Part shown: positions 7,253 to 39,240 of the stretch, piece by piece
How positions within the stretch are numbered: position 1 is the stretch's first letter
How the letters are laid out: every line of letters begins with the position of its first letter
The notes under the pieces: generated by a model
Told to the model about the DNA's origin: nothing
Database searches by the model: none
Seen by the model: only the letters and a program-made list of their open reading frames with translations
Program-made: the position numbers and the translations under genes
From: a virus
Lineage: Duplodnaviria; Heunggongvirae; Uroviricota; Caudoviricetes
IMG/VR virus record: IMGVR_UViG_2541047715_000004
Direction: 5' to 3' (one strand)
Length of the DNA: 64,000 bases

Positions 7253-7272
7253 GTGGACACCTTTGTCATTCA

Positions 7273-7374
7273 ACCGCTGACAGCATACTTGATTTGCCGC
7301 TGACAGAATACTAAAAACAGTTGGCAGCATACGGTGAACCGCTGACAGACTATCAATTACCGCTGACAGCATAC
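7273..7374. repeat. iteron array upstream of rep (4-5 copies)
   Basis: ACCGCTGACAGCATAC at 7273 and 7359, variants at 7296, 7338, partial at 7321. Confidence 0.8.
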
Positions 7375-7409: not shown

Positions 7410-7495
7410 ACAGCGATCGGGGATCTTATTTGATCTATATAAGGATCTATCTATGGATCTCTTTATTAGGATCTATCCTGTGGATATGTGAATAA
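7410..7495. promoter_or_regulatory. putative plasmid origin core: GATC cluster plus DnaA box
   Basis: Six GATC sites within 7415-7473; TGTGGATAT (reverse complement ATATCCACA, one mismatch to TTATCCACA) at 7480-7488; AT-rich. Confidence 0.55.
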
Positions 7496-28614: not shown

Positions 28615-31600
28615 CTATATCTGCCCACCTACTCCTTTGAACTTTTCAATAAACGTGACGATTTTCTGGAAAACGGTCTGTTTTTTCGTTTTATATTGCG
28701 GGTTTAACGGACTAAGTTTTGGTAATGTCTCGTTTAATTCTGTGCCATTTTCGGTGGCGTATTCGCGTTTTAAAGACGTGCGAATATAGCGTTTCGCCGC
28801 CTCTTCATTGAGATTTTCTTCTTTTATCAATGCTTCTGCTTCACGTTGCTGTTCGCGTTGAGCAAACGTAAAGAATGCCTCAATGATACTGGCTTTGTCT
28901 GGTAAATCATCCAGGTTCGTTTGCTGAATAAAATCGACCACCAGGCCCTCTTTCGCCCGGTTCCCCAGGCTTGAACGAATTAAGCGTTTGACCTCTTCGA
29001 TCATTTCGCCCTTGCCTTTATTTTGTCTGTTGTGTTCGAAAATCAGTCCAAGGATATAATCCAGGTTTATTTCCTGAGACTTCAGCAAATCGACCTCAAA
29101 AACTACGTCATCCCAGTCAGTGGTTGATTTCTCTTTTTTCTCAGCTTCTTTCTCACGGCGCTGCCAGTCGCGAATATCGTTATAGGCAGAACGATAATCC
29201 TGAATCTTGCGTTCAGCAGGGAGACGAATTGTTTGCAATTCAGCGAACTTTTCATCATCCACATAATGTTCTGCTTTGAATTTTTCTACCGCAACAGGAT
29301 CGCTAAGATCGATTTGTTGCAGGGCTTTCAGCGTGGCAAATTCATCATAGTTTTGCAGGATGTTCTCGGCACGCAGGTATTCACCAAACAGTTTTACGAA
29401 GTCTTTCTTCTCTTTTTCACTTTCAATACTGGCAGGGTCAGGGAACCGTTGTTCCAGTTCTGAAACTACTGCCATAAAGCCGCGTTTAGCTTCACCAGTG
29501 GCAGCATCTGTAAAGCCTTCCATATACTCAGCATAACTCTTTTCTAACACCACATTTTTAGTATTTTTATCACCAAACAGCGTTATGGCATCAATGGTTG
29601 AGCGTTCCAGATCCCGAAAAGTGACGATGTTACCGAAGGTTTTAGTAGCGTCATAAATGCGGTTGGTACGGGAGAATGCCTGCATCAGGCCGTGAAAACG
29701 CAAGTTTTTATCGACGAATAGCGTGTTCAATGTTGGAGCGTCGAAGCCGGTTAAAAACATCCCAACGACAATTAACAGATCGATATCCTGATTTTTAACC
29801 CGTTGGGCTAAATCACGATAGTAGTTCTGAAAACCGTTACTGTCGGTGCTGAAGTTAGTTTTAAAATAGCTGTTATACTCACGAATTGCAGCGTCAAGAA
29901 ACTCTTTAGCACTGCTGTCCATTGCGCTGGTATCAAAAGTTTCATCGGAAATTTCACCAATGGCATTTTGTTCTTCATTGGCGGCAAAGGAGAAGATTGT
30001 TGCAACACGCAGCGGTTTATAGGTAGCCGATTTATTAGCTGCTTCCTCTTGTAACCGTTTAAACGTCGCGTAATAGGCTTTCGCGGCATCCACGCTACTC
30101 ACTGCCAGCATGGCATTAAAGCCTTTGGAACCTGGGAAAGTACGGTGGGTCTTCTGGCGGAAGTTATTCAGAATATATTGCGTAATTTCCTGTATACGCA
30201 TGGGATGAAGAAATGCCTGCTGATTTTCAGCCGCACTCAGTTTTTTCTCGTCGGTTTCTGTCTCTAAAGATTTAAACTGTGGCCGCACATCGTTGTAGTC
30301 CACCTTGAATTTGAGCACTTTTTCATCACGAATCGCATCGGTAATTACATACGAATGCAATTCACGACCAAATACGCTGGCGGTCGTTTCTGAGCCTAAG
30401 GCGTTTTCCGGGAAAATAGGTGTGCCGGTAAAACCAAACTGATAATAGCGTTTGAATTTCTTCTTCAGGTTTTTCTGCGCTTCTCCAAACTGGCTGCGGT
30501 GACATTCATCAAATATAAACACCACTTGCTGATTGTATACAGGCAGGTCGCTTTCTGCTTTCATCAGGTTATTAAGTTTCTGAATAGTGGTGACGATAAT
30601 TTTGTTATCGTCCTTATCCAGATTGCGTTTAAGACCTGCGGTATTTTCCGAGCCGTTGACGCTGTCTGGCGAAAAACGCTTATATTCATTCATGGTCTGG
30701 TAATCGAGGTCTTTCCTGTCGACCACGAAGAAGACTTTATCAATAAAGTCCAGCTCTGTTGCCAGACGCGCGGCTTTAAAGCTGGTGAGGGTTTTACCTG
30801 AACCGGTAGTGTGCCAGATATACCCACCGCTTTCCGGTTTTGACCAGTTCTTCGCTGTAAAGGAACTCTTAATTTTCCACAGAATGCGCTCAGTGGCGGC
30901 AATCTGGTACGGTCGCATCACCAGTAGCGTTTGGCTAACATCGAATACGCTGTAGTTCACTAAGACATTAAGCAGGGTATGTTTCTGGAAAAAGGTGGCG
31001 GTAAAGTCTTTGAGGTCTTTAATCAGCGTGTTGTCTGATTTCGCCCAATTCATGGTGAAGTCAAAACTGTTTTTATCGCGCTTTGTCGTGTTGGCAAAGT
31101 AACGGGTATCGGTGCCGTTGGAAATGACAAACAGTTGCAGATACTTAAACAGAGAATTTTCGCTGTTAAAACTCTCTTTGCTGTAACGATGTATCTGGTT
31201 AAAGGCCTCACGAATCGCCACGCCGCGCTTTTTCAGTTCGATTTGTACCAGCGGTAAGCCATTAACCAGGATCGTGACGTCATAACGGTTAGCATGAGAA
31301 CCCGTCTGTTCAAACTGCTGGATAATCTGCACCTTGTTGCGCATGAGATTCTTTTTATCTATCAAATAGATGTTCTCAAGACGCTCGTCATCAAAAATAA
31401 AGTCGCAAATATAGTCGATATGGATTTTACGGGTCTTATCCAGGATGCCATCGCTCGGGTTATCCAGATACTGCTCCGTGAAACGCCGCCATTCGCTGTC
31501 ATTAAACACCACACCATTGAGGTTCTGAAGCTGTTCCCGAACGTTGGCCAGCATCGCCGACTGAGATTTTACGGAAATAAATTCATAGCCCTGATTCCGC

Positions 31601-31731
31601 AGATCCTGAATCAGTTCACGTTCCAGGTCCGATTCGCTCTGGTAGCTGTCGCCTGTTTGCTCGGCTTTGATGTACTTATCAAGAACGATAAAGTTATTGG
31701 ATTCAGCAATGGTGTGTGTCTGATGAGTCAT
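28615..31731 (-). CDS. hsdR: type I restriction enzyme R subunit (type IC, EcoR124-like)
   Basis: 1038 aa; N-terminus [22 protein letters not shown] matches my recollection of EcoR124I HsdR; helicase motifs [16 protein letters not shown]. Confidence 0.9.
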
Positions 31732-31852
31732 AGCGCATCCTTTGTGCCGTCTGGCAAGGGCCGGAAGGGCTTTAAGGGCGACTTCCGGCGTGTAAAAAAT
31801 AGTCTCTATATAGACCGGATGTTAAGGTGATCCGGTCGGTAGCAATGGTCAA

Positions 31853-33100
31853 TTAGTTACTGATAGTTTCAGGTTTGGGAAAACTGAACAGTAAATCACG
31901 ATAGTACTCGTATTGTTTCTGGCGCAACTCGATTTCACGCGGAAGACCTTCGGTGATGGAATTGGTCAAAGCATCAAATTTATCCAGTAATTTCACTATT
32001 TTTTGTTGTTCAACTAGCGATCTTTCAGGAGAATCAGGAAATGGTACTGGTATCATAAGTTTTCTTAAGTTATCATTATAAAGTCTTTTAATAGTTCCAC
32101 CTTCAGATATTCCCCATTTTGCTATTTTATAGAAATAGAATAAATATTTATTTAAAACTATTTTTTCATTATTTTCAATCCAGACAATATTGCTATCCTG
32201 GAAATATGATTCCCTACCATCAAATATAACAGTCCTGCCGATGGTCCCACTGGCAGAAATCAATACTTCGCCAACTTTAGGATAACTATATTTTTCTTTA
32301 AATTCATTAAATAGTTTTCTAGATATATAGGAATCGGGTTCCTTACCAAATGTCCCAATTTTATAAAATGGAATCTCTCCCTCAGAAGATGTTTGTGATT
32401 TTAGGATTCGTTTACACATACGAACTTCACCAATTTCCCCCAAAGCTTTCCACTCAACCTCACCCTCTTTAAAACTCAACAACTGGTCGCGATAGTAGTT
32501 GTATTGTTTTTTACGCATGCTAAGCTCAGCGGTAAGCTCAGCGGTAAGTGCAGTAAATTTATCCAGAATCCTGACGATTTCAGACTGGATAGCCAGCGAC
32601 TTTTCCGGGTTGTTGGGGCAAGGGATGGGGATAAGTAATTTACCTATATCTTTAGCATACAAATGATAAACAGTAGAACCTTTAACCATTTGCAATATCT
32701 TTTTTTTGTTATTTATTATGAAATTACTTAGATATCTACCATCAACACCAGAGCATCTAATAATCAAAATATCGCCGCCTAAAATAACGCCACTTTCTTG
32801 AATGCAACTAGCTGTAGCCAAACCTCTTGGTGTAACGTCTGACGTTGGCATTAGAACATCATTTTTTTCAGATAGAATTGACTCATTGATTGCTTGGTTT
32901 GTTTTTGAGCATACTTTGTCAATTATGGGACCATAATGAGTGAAAAGCTCACCGTAATGAATACAATATCTATTGCCATCTGGAGTTATTTTTTCTTTAG
33001 GTAAAGACTTCCCTTTTAAAAAAGTTGCTAATTTATTTAATGCTACCCACTCAACCTCAGCCCCATCCAGCAGTTTTTCCAGATAACTCAGCTCGCTCAT
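31853..33100 (-). CDS. hsdS: type I restriction-modification specificity subunit (type IC)
   Basis: Two target-recognition domains separated by conserved central region containing TAELTAEL; conserved C-terminal [22 protein letters not shown]. Confidence 0.9.
32522..32545 (-). repeat. 2 x 12-bp tandem repeat encoding TAEL-TAEL in hsdS central conserved region
   Basis: aagctcagcggt repeated twice on + strand (ACCGCTGAGCTT on coding strand). Confidence 0.85.
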
Positions 33101-34659
33101 GCCTGTACCTCGCTACCTTCAATCTCAGCAACAATCGCATCAATATCTTTACGCAACTGGTCGATTTTGCTGACCGTGGTTTTCAGCTCAGCATTCAGCT
33201 CAGCGATATCGATAATTTCGCGAGTATCTTTCGCTTCCACATAGCTGCTCACCGACAGGTTATAGTCATTCGCGACAACAGTCTCAAACGCAACAGATTT
33301 CGCCAGATGAGCAACATCTTCCTTGCTGGCAAATACCTGCATAATCTGTTCGATATGAGCATCGGTCAGAATGTTGTTGTTAGTCTCTTTTTTGAACAGT
33401 TCGCTGGCATCAATAAACTGAACTTTGGTATCCGTTTTATGTTTAGACAGCACCAGAATATTGACGGCAATAGTGGTGCCAAAGAACAGATTCGGTGCCA
33501 GTGAAATCACGGTTTCGACATAGTTATTGTCGACCAGATACTGACGGATTTTCTGCTCCGCGCCGCCACGGTAAAAAATGCCTGGGAAGCAGACAATCGC
33601 AGCGCGACCTTTGGCCGAAAGATAGTTCAGCGCATGTAATACAAACGCAAAGTCAGCTTTGGATTTGGGGGCCAGAACGCCAGCCGGGGCAAAACGTTCA
33701 TCGTTAATCAGCGTCGGGTCATCGCTGCCAATCCATTTCACCGAATACGGCGGGTTAGAAACGATGGCATCAAACGGTTTTTCATCTCTGAAGTGCGGCT
33801 CAGTCAGTGTATTACCCAGCTTGATATCAAACTTGTCGTAGTTGATGTTGTGCAAAAACATGTTCATACGCGCCAGGTTATAGGTCGTATGGTTGATTTC
33901 CTGACCAAAAAAACCTTCTTCGATGATATGGTCATCAAACTGTTTTTTCGCCTGCAACAACAGCGAACCGGAGCCTGCTGCCGGGTCGTAGATTTTGTTA
34001 ACGTGGGTCTGCCCGTGCATAGCCAGTTGTGCAATCAGCTTAGAGACGTGCTGCGGTGTAAAGAACTCGCCGCCGGACTTACCGGCATTCGCCGCATAGT
34101 TAGAAATCAGGAACTCATAGGCGTCACCGAACAGGTCAATCTGATGTTCATGGAAGTCACCAAGTTTTAGCCCTTCAACCCCTTTCAGAACCGCAGCCAA
34201 GCGGGCATTTTTATCTTTAACGGTGTTACCCAGGCGGTTACTGGTGGTATCGAAATCAGCAAACAAACCTTTGATGTCAGCTTCTGAAGGATAACCGTAA
34301 GCAGAACTTTCGATAGCAACGAAGATGCTGTTTAAATCTGCATTCAGTCTGTCATTAGTATTTGCTTTCGCAGCTACGTTGCAGAAAAGCTGACTGGGGT
34401 AGATGAAGTAGCCTTTAGTTTTGATGGCATCGTCTTTAATGTCATCAGTAATTACGCTGTCATCCAGTTTCGCATAACAGATACTGTCATCACCGGCTTC
34501 AATATAACTGGAAAAATTTTCGCTGATAAAACGGTAAAAAAGCGCGCCCAAAACGTACTGCTTAAAATCCCATCCATCGACTGAACCCCTGACATCGTTA
34601 GCAATTTGCCAGATCTGGCGATGAAGCTCTGCACGTTGTTGAATACTTGTCATTTTCAT
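33097..34659 (-). CDS. hsdM: type I restriction-modification methyltransferase subunit
   Basis: N6-adenine MTase motifs including NPPYS; stop overlaps hsdS start (ATGA). Confidence 0.9.
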
Positions 34660-34744: not shown

Positions 34745-35009
34745 CTAATTAGAGCTTTTTGGAAAAGCGGTATTGTCGGTGCGATTTTAGCTATGTCTGG
34801 GTGTGCGATGGTGCAATACAATGACGGTGAAAAGGTTAGCATCCAGTTCGATGGCTGGTATTGGCTTGGATAGCCTGCCAAAAAACGCAGATAAAGCCTG
34901 TCAGCAATACGGAAAGTCTAAAGCTGTATATCTGCATAGCGCGAACGCTAACCCTCATCTTGCGCCTGGTACGGGTGTTCAGAATACCATCTGGAAATGT
35001 GAGCCTTAA
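34745..35009 (+). pseudogene. possible frameshifted small lipoprotein gene remnant
   Basis: Lipobox-like LAMSGC in one frame (ending at about 34866) continues in another frame as ORF 34803-35009; weak. Confidence 0.2.
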
Positions 35010-35011
35010 AC

Positions 35012-35263
35012 ATGAGCAACTGGAACATAGCAGCCAAAAGCCAGGAAGAAAGGAATAAAGTTAACGTTGACCTGGCTGCCAGGGGGGTTGCCTACAAAGA
35101 GCGATTGAACATACCCGTCATAGCGGAACAGGTAGCCCGTGAGCAACCTGAGAACCTGCGCACCTATTTCATGGAACGGCTACGGCACTACCGGCAGTTA
35201 AGCCTCCTGCTGCCAAAAGGAAACGATCCGGTATATCAGAAAGAAGATATAGCCAAAAAATAA
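35012..35263 (+). CDS. hypothetical protein
   Basis: 83-aa ORF upstream of the LexA box. Confidence 0.35.
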
Positions 35264-35323
35264 CGCGCCACCAGACGAGCGCAAAGCATCGCGCTATTGC
35301 ACACTTCAAGCATCTTTAATGTA

Positions 35324-35343
35324 TACTGTATGGATAAACAGTA
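35324..35343 (+). promoter_or_regulatory. LexA (SOS) box
   Basis: TACTGTATGGATAAACAGTA fits CTGT-N8-ACAG consensus, 19 bp upstream of the umuD-like start. Confidence 0.8.
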
Positions 35344-35361
35344 CTCTGAGGTGAAAACGCT

Positions 35362-35751
35362 ATGGGCTTCCCTTCTCCTGCGGCGGATTATGCTGAGAGC
35401 CGTATTTCTCTTGATCAGCAGATAATTAGACATCCTTCAGCGACCTACTTCATGAGGGCAGCTGATAGTCATCATCGTGAGGGAATATTACAGGGTGCAT
35501 TGCTGGTGGTCGATTCCTCACTTACCCCGGTTGATGGTTCTCTGCTTGTATGCGCTCTGGATGGGGAATATCGCGTAAAAAGATACCGGAAGTACCCACG
35601 TCAGCATCTGGAGGATTTAAGAACCGGTAAGAAGGAAGCATTGCCAAAGGATGACGATGGATGCACGGGCAGCAATGCCGTGTTTGGTGTGATCACTCAC
35701 ATTATCAACGACGCAAGAAGTGGCGAGTTTGATGATTGTCCCGTGATGTAG
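35362..35751 (+). CDS. UmuD'/HumD-like S24 peptidase-fold protein lacking the N-terminal arm
   Basis: Begins MGFPSPAADYAE, equivalent to E. coli UmuD residues right after the Cys24-Gly25 autocleavage site; no umuC partner follows. Confidence 0.65.
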   Translation: MGFPSPAADYAESRISLDQQIIRHPSATYFMRAADSHHREGILQGALLVVDSSLTPVDGSLLVCALDGEYRVKRYRKYPRQHLEDLRTGKKEALPKDDDGCTGSNAVFGVITHIINDARSGEFDDCPVM

Positions 35752-35762
35752 GAGAACTGATT

Positions 35763-35788
35763 AGGCGGTGCAATGCACCGCCTTTTAT
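35763..35788. terminator. bidirectional terminator hairpin
   Basis: Hairpin aggcggtgc-aat-gcaccgcct with T-run, between convergent umuD-like and mrp genes. Confidence 0.55.
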
Positions 35789-36888
35789 CACACTGCGCGG
35801 AATGCGATTTCGCCAGGTATTACTTCACCTTGCCAATACATTTGGGCGGCAACGCGATCTGCGAGGTCACGATAAATAGCCGTAAATTCGCTATCTGGAC
35901 GACTAATAACGGTTGGTGTTCCGTTATCCAGATCTTCACGAAGAGAGATATGAAGTGGCATTTGGCCTAACAACTGCGTGTTGTATTTCTCGGCCAGTTT
36001 CTGTGCGCCACCGGTGCCAAAAATTGGCTCGTGATGACCGCAGTTACTGCAAATATGCACACTCATGTTTTCGACGATACCCAGTACCGGCACTTCGACT
36101 TTTTCGAACATCACAATGCCTTTCTTCGCATCGATCAGCGCGATGTCTTGCGGCGTAGTTACCACAACCGCACCAGTTACAGGAATGTTCTGCGCCAGCG
36201 TCAACTGAATATCACCAGTGCCCGGCGGCATATCGAGAACGAGATAGTCCAGATCAGGCCATAGAGTTTCCTGCAACATCTGCATCAGCGCCTTGCTGGC
36301 CATCGGTCCACGCCACACCATTGCATTGTCGTCGGTGACCAGATAACCAATAGAGTTGGTTGCCAGGCCATGAGACATGATAGGTGCCATGTGAGTACCG
36401 TCAGGTGAGGTTGGACGTTGGTTTTCCGCGCCCAGCATGGTTGGAATTGATGGACCATAGATATCGGCATCCAAAATACCAACTTTCGCACCTTCAGCAG
36501 CCAACGCCAGTGCCAGGTTTACCGCCGTGGAGGATTTACCCACGCCGCCCTTGCCTGAGCTGACGGCGATAATGTTCTTAACGCCATTAATGCCTGGTTG
36601 GTTTTTGACGCGCTTAAGCGTGGCAATGTTGTACGACAGCTTCCAGTCAATAGCCTTTGCGCCAGTGATACGGAGCAGATCACCACTACATTGCTCTTTC
36701 AGGTCTTCAAAAGGCTTATTCCACACGAAAGGCATGATTAGTTCGACATGCAGTGTGTCATCCATCAACGCAACATGGTGTAACGCTTTAAGCGTAGTCA
36801 GGTTGTGTTTCAGGGTTGGGTGCTGAAAATTAGCCAGCGTACCGGCTACCATTGCTCTCAGGGCATCCGGCGATTTGGACTCGCTCAT
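35788..36888 (-). CDS. apbC: iron-sulfur cluster carrier ATPase Mrp/ApbC
   Basis: Deviant Walker A SGKGGVGKSS, CxxC motif ICSNCGHH; divergent from metG as in E. coli. Confidence 0.9.
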   Translation of the reverse strand: MSESKSPDALRAMVAGTLANFQHPTLKHNLTTLKALHHVALMDDTLHVELIMPFVWNKPFEDLKEQCSGDLLRITGAKAIDWKLSYNIATLKRVKNQPGINGVKNIIAVSSGKGGVGKSSTAVNLALALAAEGAKVGILDADIYGPSIPTMLGAENQRPTSPDGTHMAPIMSHGLATNSIGYLVTDDNAMVWRGPMASKALMQMLQETLWPDLDYLVLDMPPGTGDIQLTLAQNIPVTGAVVVTTPQDIALIDAKKGIVMFEKVEVPVLGIVENMSVHICSNCGHHEPIFGTGGAQKLAEKYNTQLLGQMPLHISLREDLDNGTPTVISRPDSEFTAIYRDLADRVAAQMYWQGEVIPGEIAFRAV

Positions 36889-37045
36889 CCCGTCTCCTTT
36901 ATTTTAATTTGCGCAATTGTCGCCTTGTAGTGTACTCCAGCTACGACATTTAATCATTTATGAGAAATGCTGTTATCACATGGCAGACATAAGGCCATTT
37001 TGTTACTATCAAGCCCCTTTTCACTACAAAGAAGTAATGCCTACT

Positions 37046-39079
37046 ATGACCCAAGTCGCGAAGAAAATTCTGGTGACGTGCGCGCTGCCGTACGCTAACG
37101 GCTCAATCCACCTCGGCCATATGCTGGAGCACATCCAGGCTGATGTCTGGGTTCGTTACCAGCGAATGCGCGGCCACGAGGTTAATTTCATCTGTGCCGA
37201 CGATGCCCACGGTACGCCGATCATGCTGAAAGCACAGCAGCTTGGTATCACACCGGAGCAGATGATTGGCGAAATGAGTCAGGAACACCAGACTGATTTC
37301 GCAGGCTTTAACATCAGCTATGACAACTATCACTCGACGCACAGCGAAGAGAACCGCCAGCTGTCTGAGCTTATCTATACTCGCCTGAAAGAGAACGGTT
37401 TTATTAAAAACCGCACTATCTCTCAGTTGTACGACCCGGAAAAAGGCATGTTCCTGCCGGATCGTTTTGTGAAAGGCACCTGCCCGAAATGTAAAGCGCC
37501 AGATCAATACGGCGATAACTGTGAAGTCTGCGGCGCAACATATAGCCCGACTGAATTGATCGAGCCGAAATCGGTGGTTTCTGGCGCTACCCCGGTAATG
37601 CGTGATTCCGAACACTTCTTCTTTGATCTGCCTTCTTTCAGCGAAATGTTGCAGGCATGGACCCGCAGCGGCGCGTTGCAGGAGCAGGTGGCGAACAAAA
37701 TGCAGGAATGGTTTGAATCCGGCCTGCAACAGTGGGATATCTCCCGAGATGCGCCTTACTTCGGTTTTGAAATTCCGAACGCGCCGGGCAAATATTTCTA
37801 CGTCTGGCTGGACGCGCCGATTGGCTACATGGGTTCCTTCAAGAATCTGTGCGACAAACGCGGCGACACTACCAGCTTCGACGAATACTGGAAGAAAGAC
37901 TCCACCGCCGAGCTGTACCACTTCATCGGTAAAGATATCGTTTACTTCCACAGCCTGTTCTGGCCTGCCATGCTGGAAGGCAGCAACTTCCGCAAGCCGA
38001 CCAACCTGTTTGTTCACGGCTATGTGACGGTGAACGGCGCGAAGATGTCCAAGTCTCGCGGCACCTTTATTAAAGCCAGCACCTGGCTGAATCATTTTGA
38101 CGCCGACAGCCTGCGTTACTACTACACTGCGAAACTCTCTTCGCGCATTGATGATATCGATCTCAACCTGGAAGATTTTGTTCAGCGCGTGAATGCCGAT
38201 ATCGTGAACAAAGTGGTTAACCTGGCCTCCCGTAATGCAGGTTTTATCAACAAACGTTTTGACGGCGTGCTGGCAAGCGAACTGGCTGACCCGCAACTGT
38301 ACAAAACCTTCACTGATGCCGCTGAAGTGATTGGTGAAGCGTGGGAAAGCCGCGAATTTGGCAAAGCTATCCGTGAAATCATGTCACTGGCTGACCTGGC
38401 TAACCGCTATGTTGATGAACAGGCTCCGTGGGTGGTGGCGAAGCAGGAAGGCCGCGATGCCGACCTGCAGGCGATTTGCTCTATGGGCATTAACCTGTTC
38501 CGCGTGCTGATGACGTACCTGAAACCGGTACTGCCGAAACTGACTGAACGTGCAGAAGCATTCCTGAATACAGAACTGACCTGGGATGGTATCCAGCAAC
38601 CGCTGCTGGGCCATAAAGTGAATCCGTTCAAGGCACTGTATAACCGTATCGATATGAAACAGGTGGAAGCACTGGTGGAAGCATCCAAAGAAGAAGTGAA
38701 AGCCACAGCTGCACAGGTAACTGGCCCACTGGCTGACGACCCGATTCAGGAAACCATCACCTTTGACGACTTCGCCAAAGTTGACCTGCGTGTGGCGCTG
38801 ATTGAAAACGCGGAGTTTGTCGAAGGTTCTGACAAACTGCTGCGTCTGACACTGGATCTCGGTGGTGAAAAGCGTAATGTCTTCTCAGGCATCCGTTCTG
38901 CTTATCCAGACCCACAGGCACTGATTGGTCGTCACACCATTATGGTGGCTAACCTGGCTCCGCGTAAAATGCGCTTCGGTATCTCCGAAGGCATGGTGAT
39001 GGCTGCTGGCCCCGGCGGGAAAGATATCTTCCTGTTAAGCCCGGATGCTGGTGCTAAACCAGGCCACCAGGTTAAGTAA
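37046..39079 (+). CDS. metG: methionyl-tRNA synthetase
   Basis: 677 aa, near-identical in pattern to E. coli MetG (HIGH motif [13 protein letters not shown], zinc knuckles CPKC...CEVC); true start ATG 37046 inside the longer listed ORF. Confidence 0.95.
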
Positions 39080-39240
39080 TTAAACAACCTCTGTTCGCAA
39101 TGCCCGGCAACACGCTGGGCATTTTCATATAGACACAACCCCTTCTGACTTTAACAAACCCTAAAACAATTTGTTTTCTACCTTTTGTTGATTGAGATAA
39201 TAAGCCACATAAGAAAACAAATTGTTTCGGAGTTGTTGAA

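Follow-up and report, generated by a model that had tools for sequence, protein, structure and literature searches.

Natural copy-number variation of the TAEL repeat, a highly probable spacer-length module, in the hsdS gene of an EcoR124-like restriction-modification system

Type IC restriction-modification systems have the gene order hsdM-hsdS-hsdR, with hsdR apart from hsdS, and the copy-number mechanism of EcoR124I and EcoR124II has been known since 1989. The type I families were defined by DNA hybridisation, antibody cross-reaction and subunit complementation (PMC3510504). In HsdS, the two target recognition domains (TRDs) are kept apart by an antiparallel helical spacer made of the central (D1) and C-terminal (D2) conserved regions, and one Thr-Ala-Glu-Leu (TAEL) unit corresponds to about one helical turn (PMC3874165). 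The rule that TAEL copy number sets spacer length, which the original prediction invoked for the DNA analysed here, is well established: EcoR124I, with two units, recognises GAA N6 RTCG, EcoR124II, with three, recognises GAA N7 RTCG, and EcoR124/EcoDXXI hybrids behave in the same way (PMC3874165). The change in copy number in EcoR124 has been ascribed to unequal crossing-over (PMC3874165), and removal of one unit from EcoR124II changes the set of phages that are restricted (PMC10644984). Unmodified sites in the host are tolerated by type IC systems through assembly-based restriction alleviation (PMC12707154).

The DNA analysed here, a stretch of 64,000 nucleotides (the window), is, by its similarity to sequenced elements, an E. 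coli phage-plasmid of SSU5-like type. Its identity is 98.5% to Escherichia phage Cyrano over 23 kb, ∼77% to Salmonella phage SSU5, and 99.3% to plasmid A of E. coli D9 over 27 kb. The D9 plasmid bears metG, apbC, nrdAB and dfrA51 as well as a gene for thymidylate synthase. The closest SSU5-like phage genomes (Cyrano, CMS-2020a and PhiR41_1) lack the hsd operon, which is thus accessory cargo. The same cassette adjoins phd/doc on P1-like and other plasmids, and is also found at the chromosomal leuX hotspot; it therefore moves between elements as a module. On P1-like plasmids, a different N-terminal TRD is joined to the same C-terminal half as in the window HsdS. Our literature search returned no relevant report of a type IC system in SSU5-like phage-plasmids. 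By comparison with a relative, the region upstream of hsdM (window 34900–39100) contains genes for a holE-like theta subunit and an S24 peptidase, followed by apbC and metG. Housekeeping-type genes, for methionyl-tRNA synthetase and ApbC, are found beside the restriction-modification cassette, and others elsewhere (NrdAB, thymidylate synthase and the trimethoprim-resistant DHFR DfrA51).

In the window, hsdM (33097..34659), hsdS (31853..33100) and hsdR (28615..31731) are arranged head to tail on the minus strand as full-length ORFs, uninterrupted by IS elements or frameshifts. The start of hsdS and the end of hsdM share 4 nt, and a gap of 121 nt separates hsdS from hsdR. All three ORFs are assigned to type I restriction-modification by both Pfam and PADLOC. 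The product of hsdM is a 520-residue m6A methyltransferase subunit (Pfam N6_Mtase and HsdM_N), with 5 substitutions in 519 aligned residues compared to EcoR124 HsdM (PDB 7bst_D; ∼99% identity). The product of hsdR is a 1038-residue translocase-nuclease subunit (Pfam EcoR124_C, SWI2_SNF2 and HSDR_N), all 1038 residues of which align with EcoR124 HsdR (PDB 2w00_A; 2274 bits, ∼98% identity). Given this near-identity, the window subunits would likely complement those of EcoR124, EcoDXXI or EcoprrI. A sigma-70-like hexamer pair on the minus strand of the hsdS-hsdR gap (31796..31825), matching at 9 of 12 positions, is a candidate hsdR promoter. The number of such sites in the region is not above shuffle expectation, and a separate hsdR promoter in the gap is only weakly suggested.

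HsdS consists of 415 residues and was assigned by Pfam Methylase_S (1.8e-39), which matches in two stretches, one of them residues 215–391, and over its full length by the PADLOC type I specificity model (2.4e-148). The identical protein, WP_001293038.1 in RefSeq records, is present on at least 1000 contigs. Its likeness to EcoR124 HsdS (PDB 7bst_A) is confined to the first 28 residues and to the central and C-terminal conserved regions. The central region (32438..32641, minus strand; approximately residues 154–221) forms helix D1, holds the repeat and joins both TRDs; including TAELTAEL, it is nearly identical to residues 140–207 of EcoR124 HsdS. The C-terminal conserved region (31856..32005, minus strand), helix D2, is the antiparallel partner of D1 and is likewise near-identical to its EcoR124 equivalent. 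The two TRDs are unlike those of EcoR124. The N-terminal TRD (32642..33016, minus strand; approximately residues 29–153) gave no significant alignment to 7bst_A over these residues, and that of the C-terminal TRD (32006..32437, minus strand; approximately residues 222–365) is weak and gapped. Among solved structures, none matched either TRD beyond EcoR124, and that only weakly. Source names in the protein collection carried no specificity information, and a literature search with the accessions and plasmid names found no relevant report. As the TRDs are unrelated to those of EcoR124, the half-sites are predicted to differ from GAA/RTCG.

The original prediction placed this locus in type IC, and the comparisons bear it out: HsdM and HsdR are ∼99% and ∼98% identical to their EcoR124 counterparts, the gene order is that of the family, and HsdS combines two variable TRDs with a TAEL-bearing centre, which aligns almost identically, and a homologous C-terminal region. 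As judged from sequence, the window system belongs genuinely to type IC (the EcoR124 family), and carries a TRD pair different from that of EcoR124.

Within D1, two perfect tandem ACCGCTGAGCTT units (32522..32545, minus strand) encode Thr-Ala-Glu-Leu twice at HsdS residues 186–193, corresponding to positions 556–579 of the hsdS gene, in frame. In the minus-strand reading of window 32480–32600, the order is CTGCACTT-ACCGCTGAGCTT-ACCGCTGAGCTT-AGCATGCG. Tandem Repeats Finder reports the tract at 32521–32548, with a period of 12, 2.3 copies, 100% matches and a score of 56. The predicted two-copy, 12-bp tandem repeat in hsdS is thus confirmed by sequence, translation and Tandem Repeats Finder alike. 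The repeat DNA of EcoR124II is identical to the window unit with its left flank, by comparison with the published primers accgctgagcttaacatgcg and ctgcacttaccgctgagctt (PMC10644984). The TAEL repeat is the sole perfect tandem duplication with a period of at least 9 in the 64-kb window, and none was present in 200 shuffles of the window. Two imperfect arrays are found elsewhere, at 7272–7374 (period 42, 2.4 copies, 72% identity) and 7434–7485 (period 26, 2.0 copies, 84% identity), which may serve the phage-plasmid as iterons or as sites for protein binding.

In D1, the motifs LDKFTAL and MRKKQY are separated by 9 residues with two TAEL copies, a distance that a third copy would extend to 13. 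The equivalent segment of D2, between LDKFDAL and LRQKQY, has 13 residues. A third TAEL would therefore make D1 and D2 equal in length, which fits a remark in a review that three is the optimum number. We conclude that the repeat is very probably the spacer-length module of a type IC (EcoR124-family) restriction-modification cargo on an SSU5-like E. coli phage-plasmid. By analogy with the characterised systems, the antiparallel D1 and D2 helices of HsdS would hold the two TRDs apart, with each TAEL lengthening D1 by about one turn. The two-copy window protein would then methylate and restrict DNA at an asymmetric bipartite m6A site, its methylated adenines 7 nt apart (N6 in EcoR124I notation). 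Unequal crossing-over or replication slippage between the identical units, both routes being taken from the literature, could produce a gain of one 12-bp unit, and the resulting three-copy protein would recognise the same half-sites 1 bp further apart (interval 8, N7). One in-frame step would in this way alter the restriction barrier and the methylation pattern, leaving hsdM and hsdR untouched. Assembly-based restriction alleviation, if it also operates in the window system, could allow the cell to survive the moment of switching.

A change in copy number of this kind, which the original prediction had put forward as possible, is found among natural relatives. Four E. coli plasmids, pGD31-F25 (NZ_CP031294), pWP5-S18-ESBL-08_2 (NZ_AP022163), pYUSHP31-2 (NZ_CP097183) and p15ODDR (NZ_MG904996), all complete records with full-length matches, carry a three-unit hsdS of 1260 nt, compared to 1248 nt in the window. 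After removal of one unit, all four genes have 0 mismatches to the window gene over all 1,248 positions. The operons of these plasmids are annotated as intact, and no two of the four share the same combination of HsdM and HsdR protein alleles. Furthermore, copy number varies between sibling plasmids that are otherwise almost the same. pEC17CM6_2 (two copies) and pGD31-F25 (three) have 6 substitutions in 41.2 kb of aligned sequence, and pYUSHP6-3 (two) and pYUSHP31-2 (three) have 3 in 27.3 kb; the backbones of these two pairs are quite different, and their HsdM and HsdR alleles differ too. In a third, P1-like pair, pC21-4 (two) and a C-SRM-3 plasmid (three), the 12 nt are the sole difference in 4.1 kb; here the N-terminal TRD is different from that of the window and the C-terminal half is the same. 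Operons are annotated as intact for both the two-copy and the three-copy forms. The existence of sibling pairs differing by one unit indicates that the copy change has been repeated and recent. Recombination with another type IC hsdS, instead of local gain or loss, could in principle also account for a copy difference between records.

In two Shanghai pig isolates, SH19PTE6 and SH21PTE31, whose plasmids are one TAEL unit apart, the chromosome also has an hsdS match with four or more units, and its position is roughly similar in the two. This suggests a single host lineage whose plasmid copy changed from one sampling to the next.

The tract could alternatively be regarded as a fixed coiled-coil segment, its two-copy state stable and its changes too rare to matter, the variants being ordinary allelic diversity. 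Of 39 full-length relatives from complete E. coli genomes, approximately 35 carry exactly two copies, and in 30 of them the gene is 100% identical; the tract has only two 12-bp units, and the exact protein is found on at least 1000 contigs, all of which would be expected of a stable segment. However, three near-identical sibling pairs differ by exactly one unit, and the occurrence of the three-copy allele in four HsdM/HsdR combinations points to repeated events on short time scales. We therefore consider a fixed segment unlikely, and retain the reading of the repeat as a variable spacer-length module. Since two copies are the majority state for this allele, gain would be the more parsimonious direction of change. 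The same figures bear on the rate: with only two 12-bp units, and two copies in ∼35 of 39 close relatives, the tract looks like an occasional mutational switch rather than a high-frequency phase-variable tract, and two 12-bp units are a poor slippage substrate compared to classical contingency tracts.

It is less probable still that the window operon is silent or non-functional, with copy number selectively neutral there. IS elements often inactivate type IC loci in E. coli, and one close relative has a frameshift in hsdS caused by a 4-bp deletion (gene positions 353–356) that splits the gene. The window operon, in contrast, is free of IS elements and frameshifts, and its three full-length ORFs are 98–99% identical to biochemically active EcoR124 subunits. 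A separate feature of hsdS is an A8 homopolymer in codons 131–133, inside the N-terminal TRD (window 32700–32707, T8 on the plus strand). A frameshift in this run could truncate the specificity subunit; no length variation of the run was found among reliable relatives.

That errors of assembly or sequencing produced the three-copy records is hardly credible: although the related record CP059946 has numerous scattered indels of one base, as is usual in uncorrected long reads, the difference seen here is a clean in-frame 12-nt insertion and nothing else, it recurs in five or more independent assemblies made by different laboratories in different countries, the 36-nt tract is much shorter than any read, at least three copies are present in 439 E. 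coli records (see below), and EcoR124II, with three TAEL copies, has been characterised experimentally (PMC3874165). Copy number in related isolates therefore varies, and the invariance among relatives that would have spoken against the original prediction was not observed.

The wider distribution of copy number was surveyed with the exact unit ACCGCTGAGCTT in 20,395 records from 5,426 complete E. coli genomes. Two or more copies were counted with a 52-nt query that includes the flanks, whose coverage figures are unusable; three or more and four or more were counted with flank-free queries of 36 and 48 nt, at E-value cut-offs that exclude shorter tracts. At least two copies were present in 1029 records, at least three in 439 and at least four in 35, which implies two copies in ∼590 records, three in ∼404 and four to eight in 35. 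One exact unit was found in 0 of the 20,395 records. These counts are lower bounds, since units with synonymous variants escape the exact-unit query. All of the census matches listed fall under an annotated S subunit. In PLSDB, tracts of at least three copies were found in 334 plasmids, also a lower bound, including those of Klebsiella, Salmonella, Citrobacter and Enterobacter. A census at the protein level, in which 115 of 120 cluster representatives had two copies, was discarded for frequencies, since variants in copy number fall together when clustered at 90% identity.

Longer tracts were inspected at eight loci on E. coli chromosomes and plasmids, with 4, 4, 4, 5, 5, 5, 6 and 8 units. In all eight, hsdM and/or hsdS is broken by IS1, IS2, IS3, ISEc45 or truncation, representing at least six distinct disruption events. 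hsdM and hsdS are intact at all six three-copy loci picked blindly from the match list, one of which has ISApl1 in hsdR. The association of disruption with four or more copies, compared to three, is significant in this small sample (8 versus 6 loci; Fisher's exact test, p = 3e-4). Either expansions build up only after the system has died, or more than three copies are harmful and select for inactivation. As a tentative and rather doubtful extension, the TAEL tract might be a constrained two-state device, in which working E. coli type IC systems toggle only between two and three copies. Neither a functional methyltransferase nor the survival of the host would then be compatible with four or more, and such tracts would occur only where hsdM or hsdS is dead or soon to be killed. 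If this were true, tract expansion would mark, or even drive, the death of a system, and the two-to-three toggle on phage-plasmids would amount to a bet-hedging change of barrier against competing elements.

Independently of that extension, if copy number acts in the window allele as it does in EcoR124, a one-step, in-frame change of the tract would re-write the restriction barrier and the methylation pattern in any host of a widespread E. coli phage-plasmid. Its repeated change among near-identical plasmids would be a live source of epigenetic and defence diversity in clinical and livestock isolates. The sibling plasmids also provide ready natural isogenic pairs for studying the copy-number/spacer rule in a new TRD combination. 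Natural siblings with two and three copies lend population-level support to the reading of the repeat as a switch, and in this respect the present results are confirmation and context rather than discovery.

The window system is closest to EcoR124I/II, with which it shares gene order, HsdM and HsdR at 98–99% identity, and the N-terminal, central and C-terminal conserved regions of HsdS. As in EcoR124I, the 12-bp unit ACCGCTGAGCTT occurs twice, and natural three-copy variants of the window allele parallel EcoR124II. It is unlike EcoR124 in that both TRDs are unrelated in sequence, in that the residue following the repeat is a serine instead of an asparagine, and in its carrier, which is an SSU5-like phage-plasmid rather than the conjugative plasmid R124. 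EcoDXXI and EcoprrI, which have three TAEL units and N7 spacers, belong to the same family and share the same repeat module (PMC3874165). Three-copy relatives of the window allele match their D1 length, equal to that of D2, whereas the window allele itself has two copies. NgoAV and other phase-variable hsdS genes bearing simple sequence repeats (SSRs) are similar in that a change in repeat length inside hsdS alters type I specificity (PMC7383803). However, their tracts are homopolymers or short SSRs that shift the frame or truncate HsdS (PMC7383803), whereas the window tract has a 12-bp unit, remains in frame and would alter only the spacing of the TRDs. The repeat is, in this comparison, a textbook feature: the known EcoR124I/II mechanism in a widespread, apparently uncharacterised allele.
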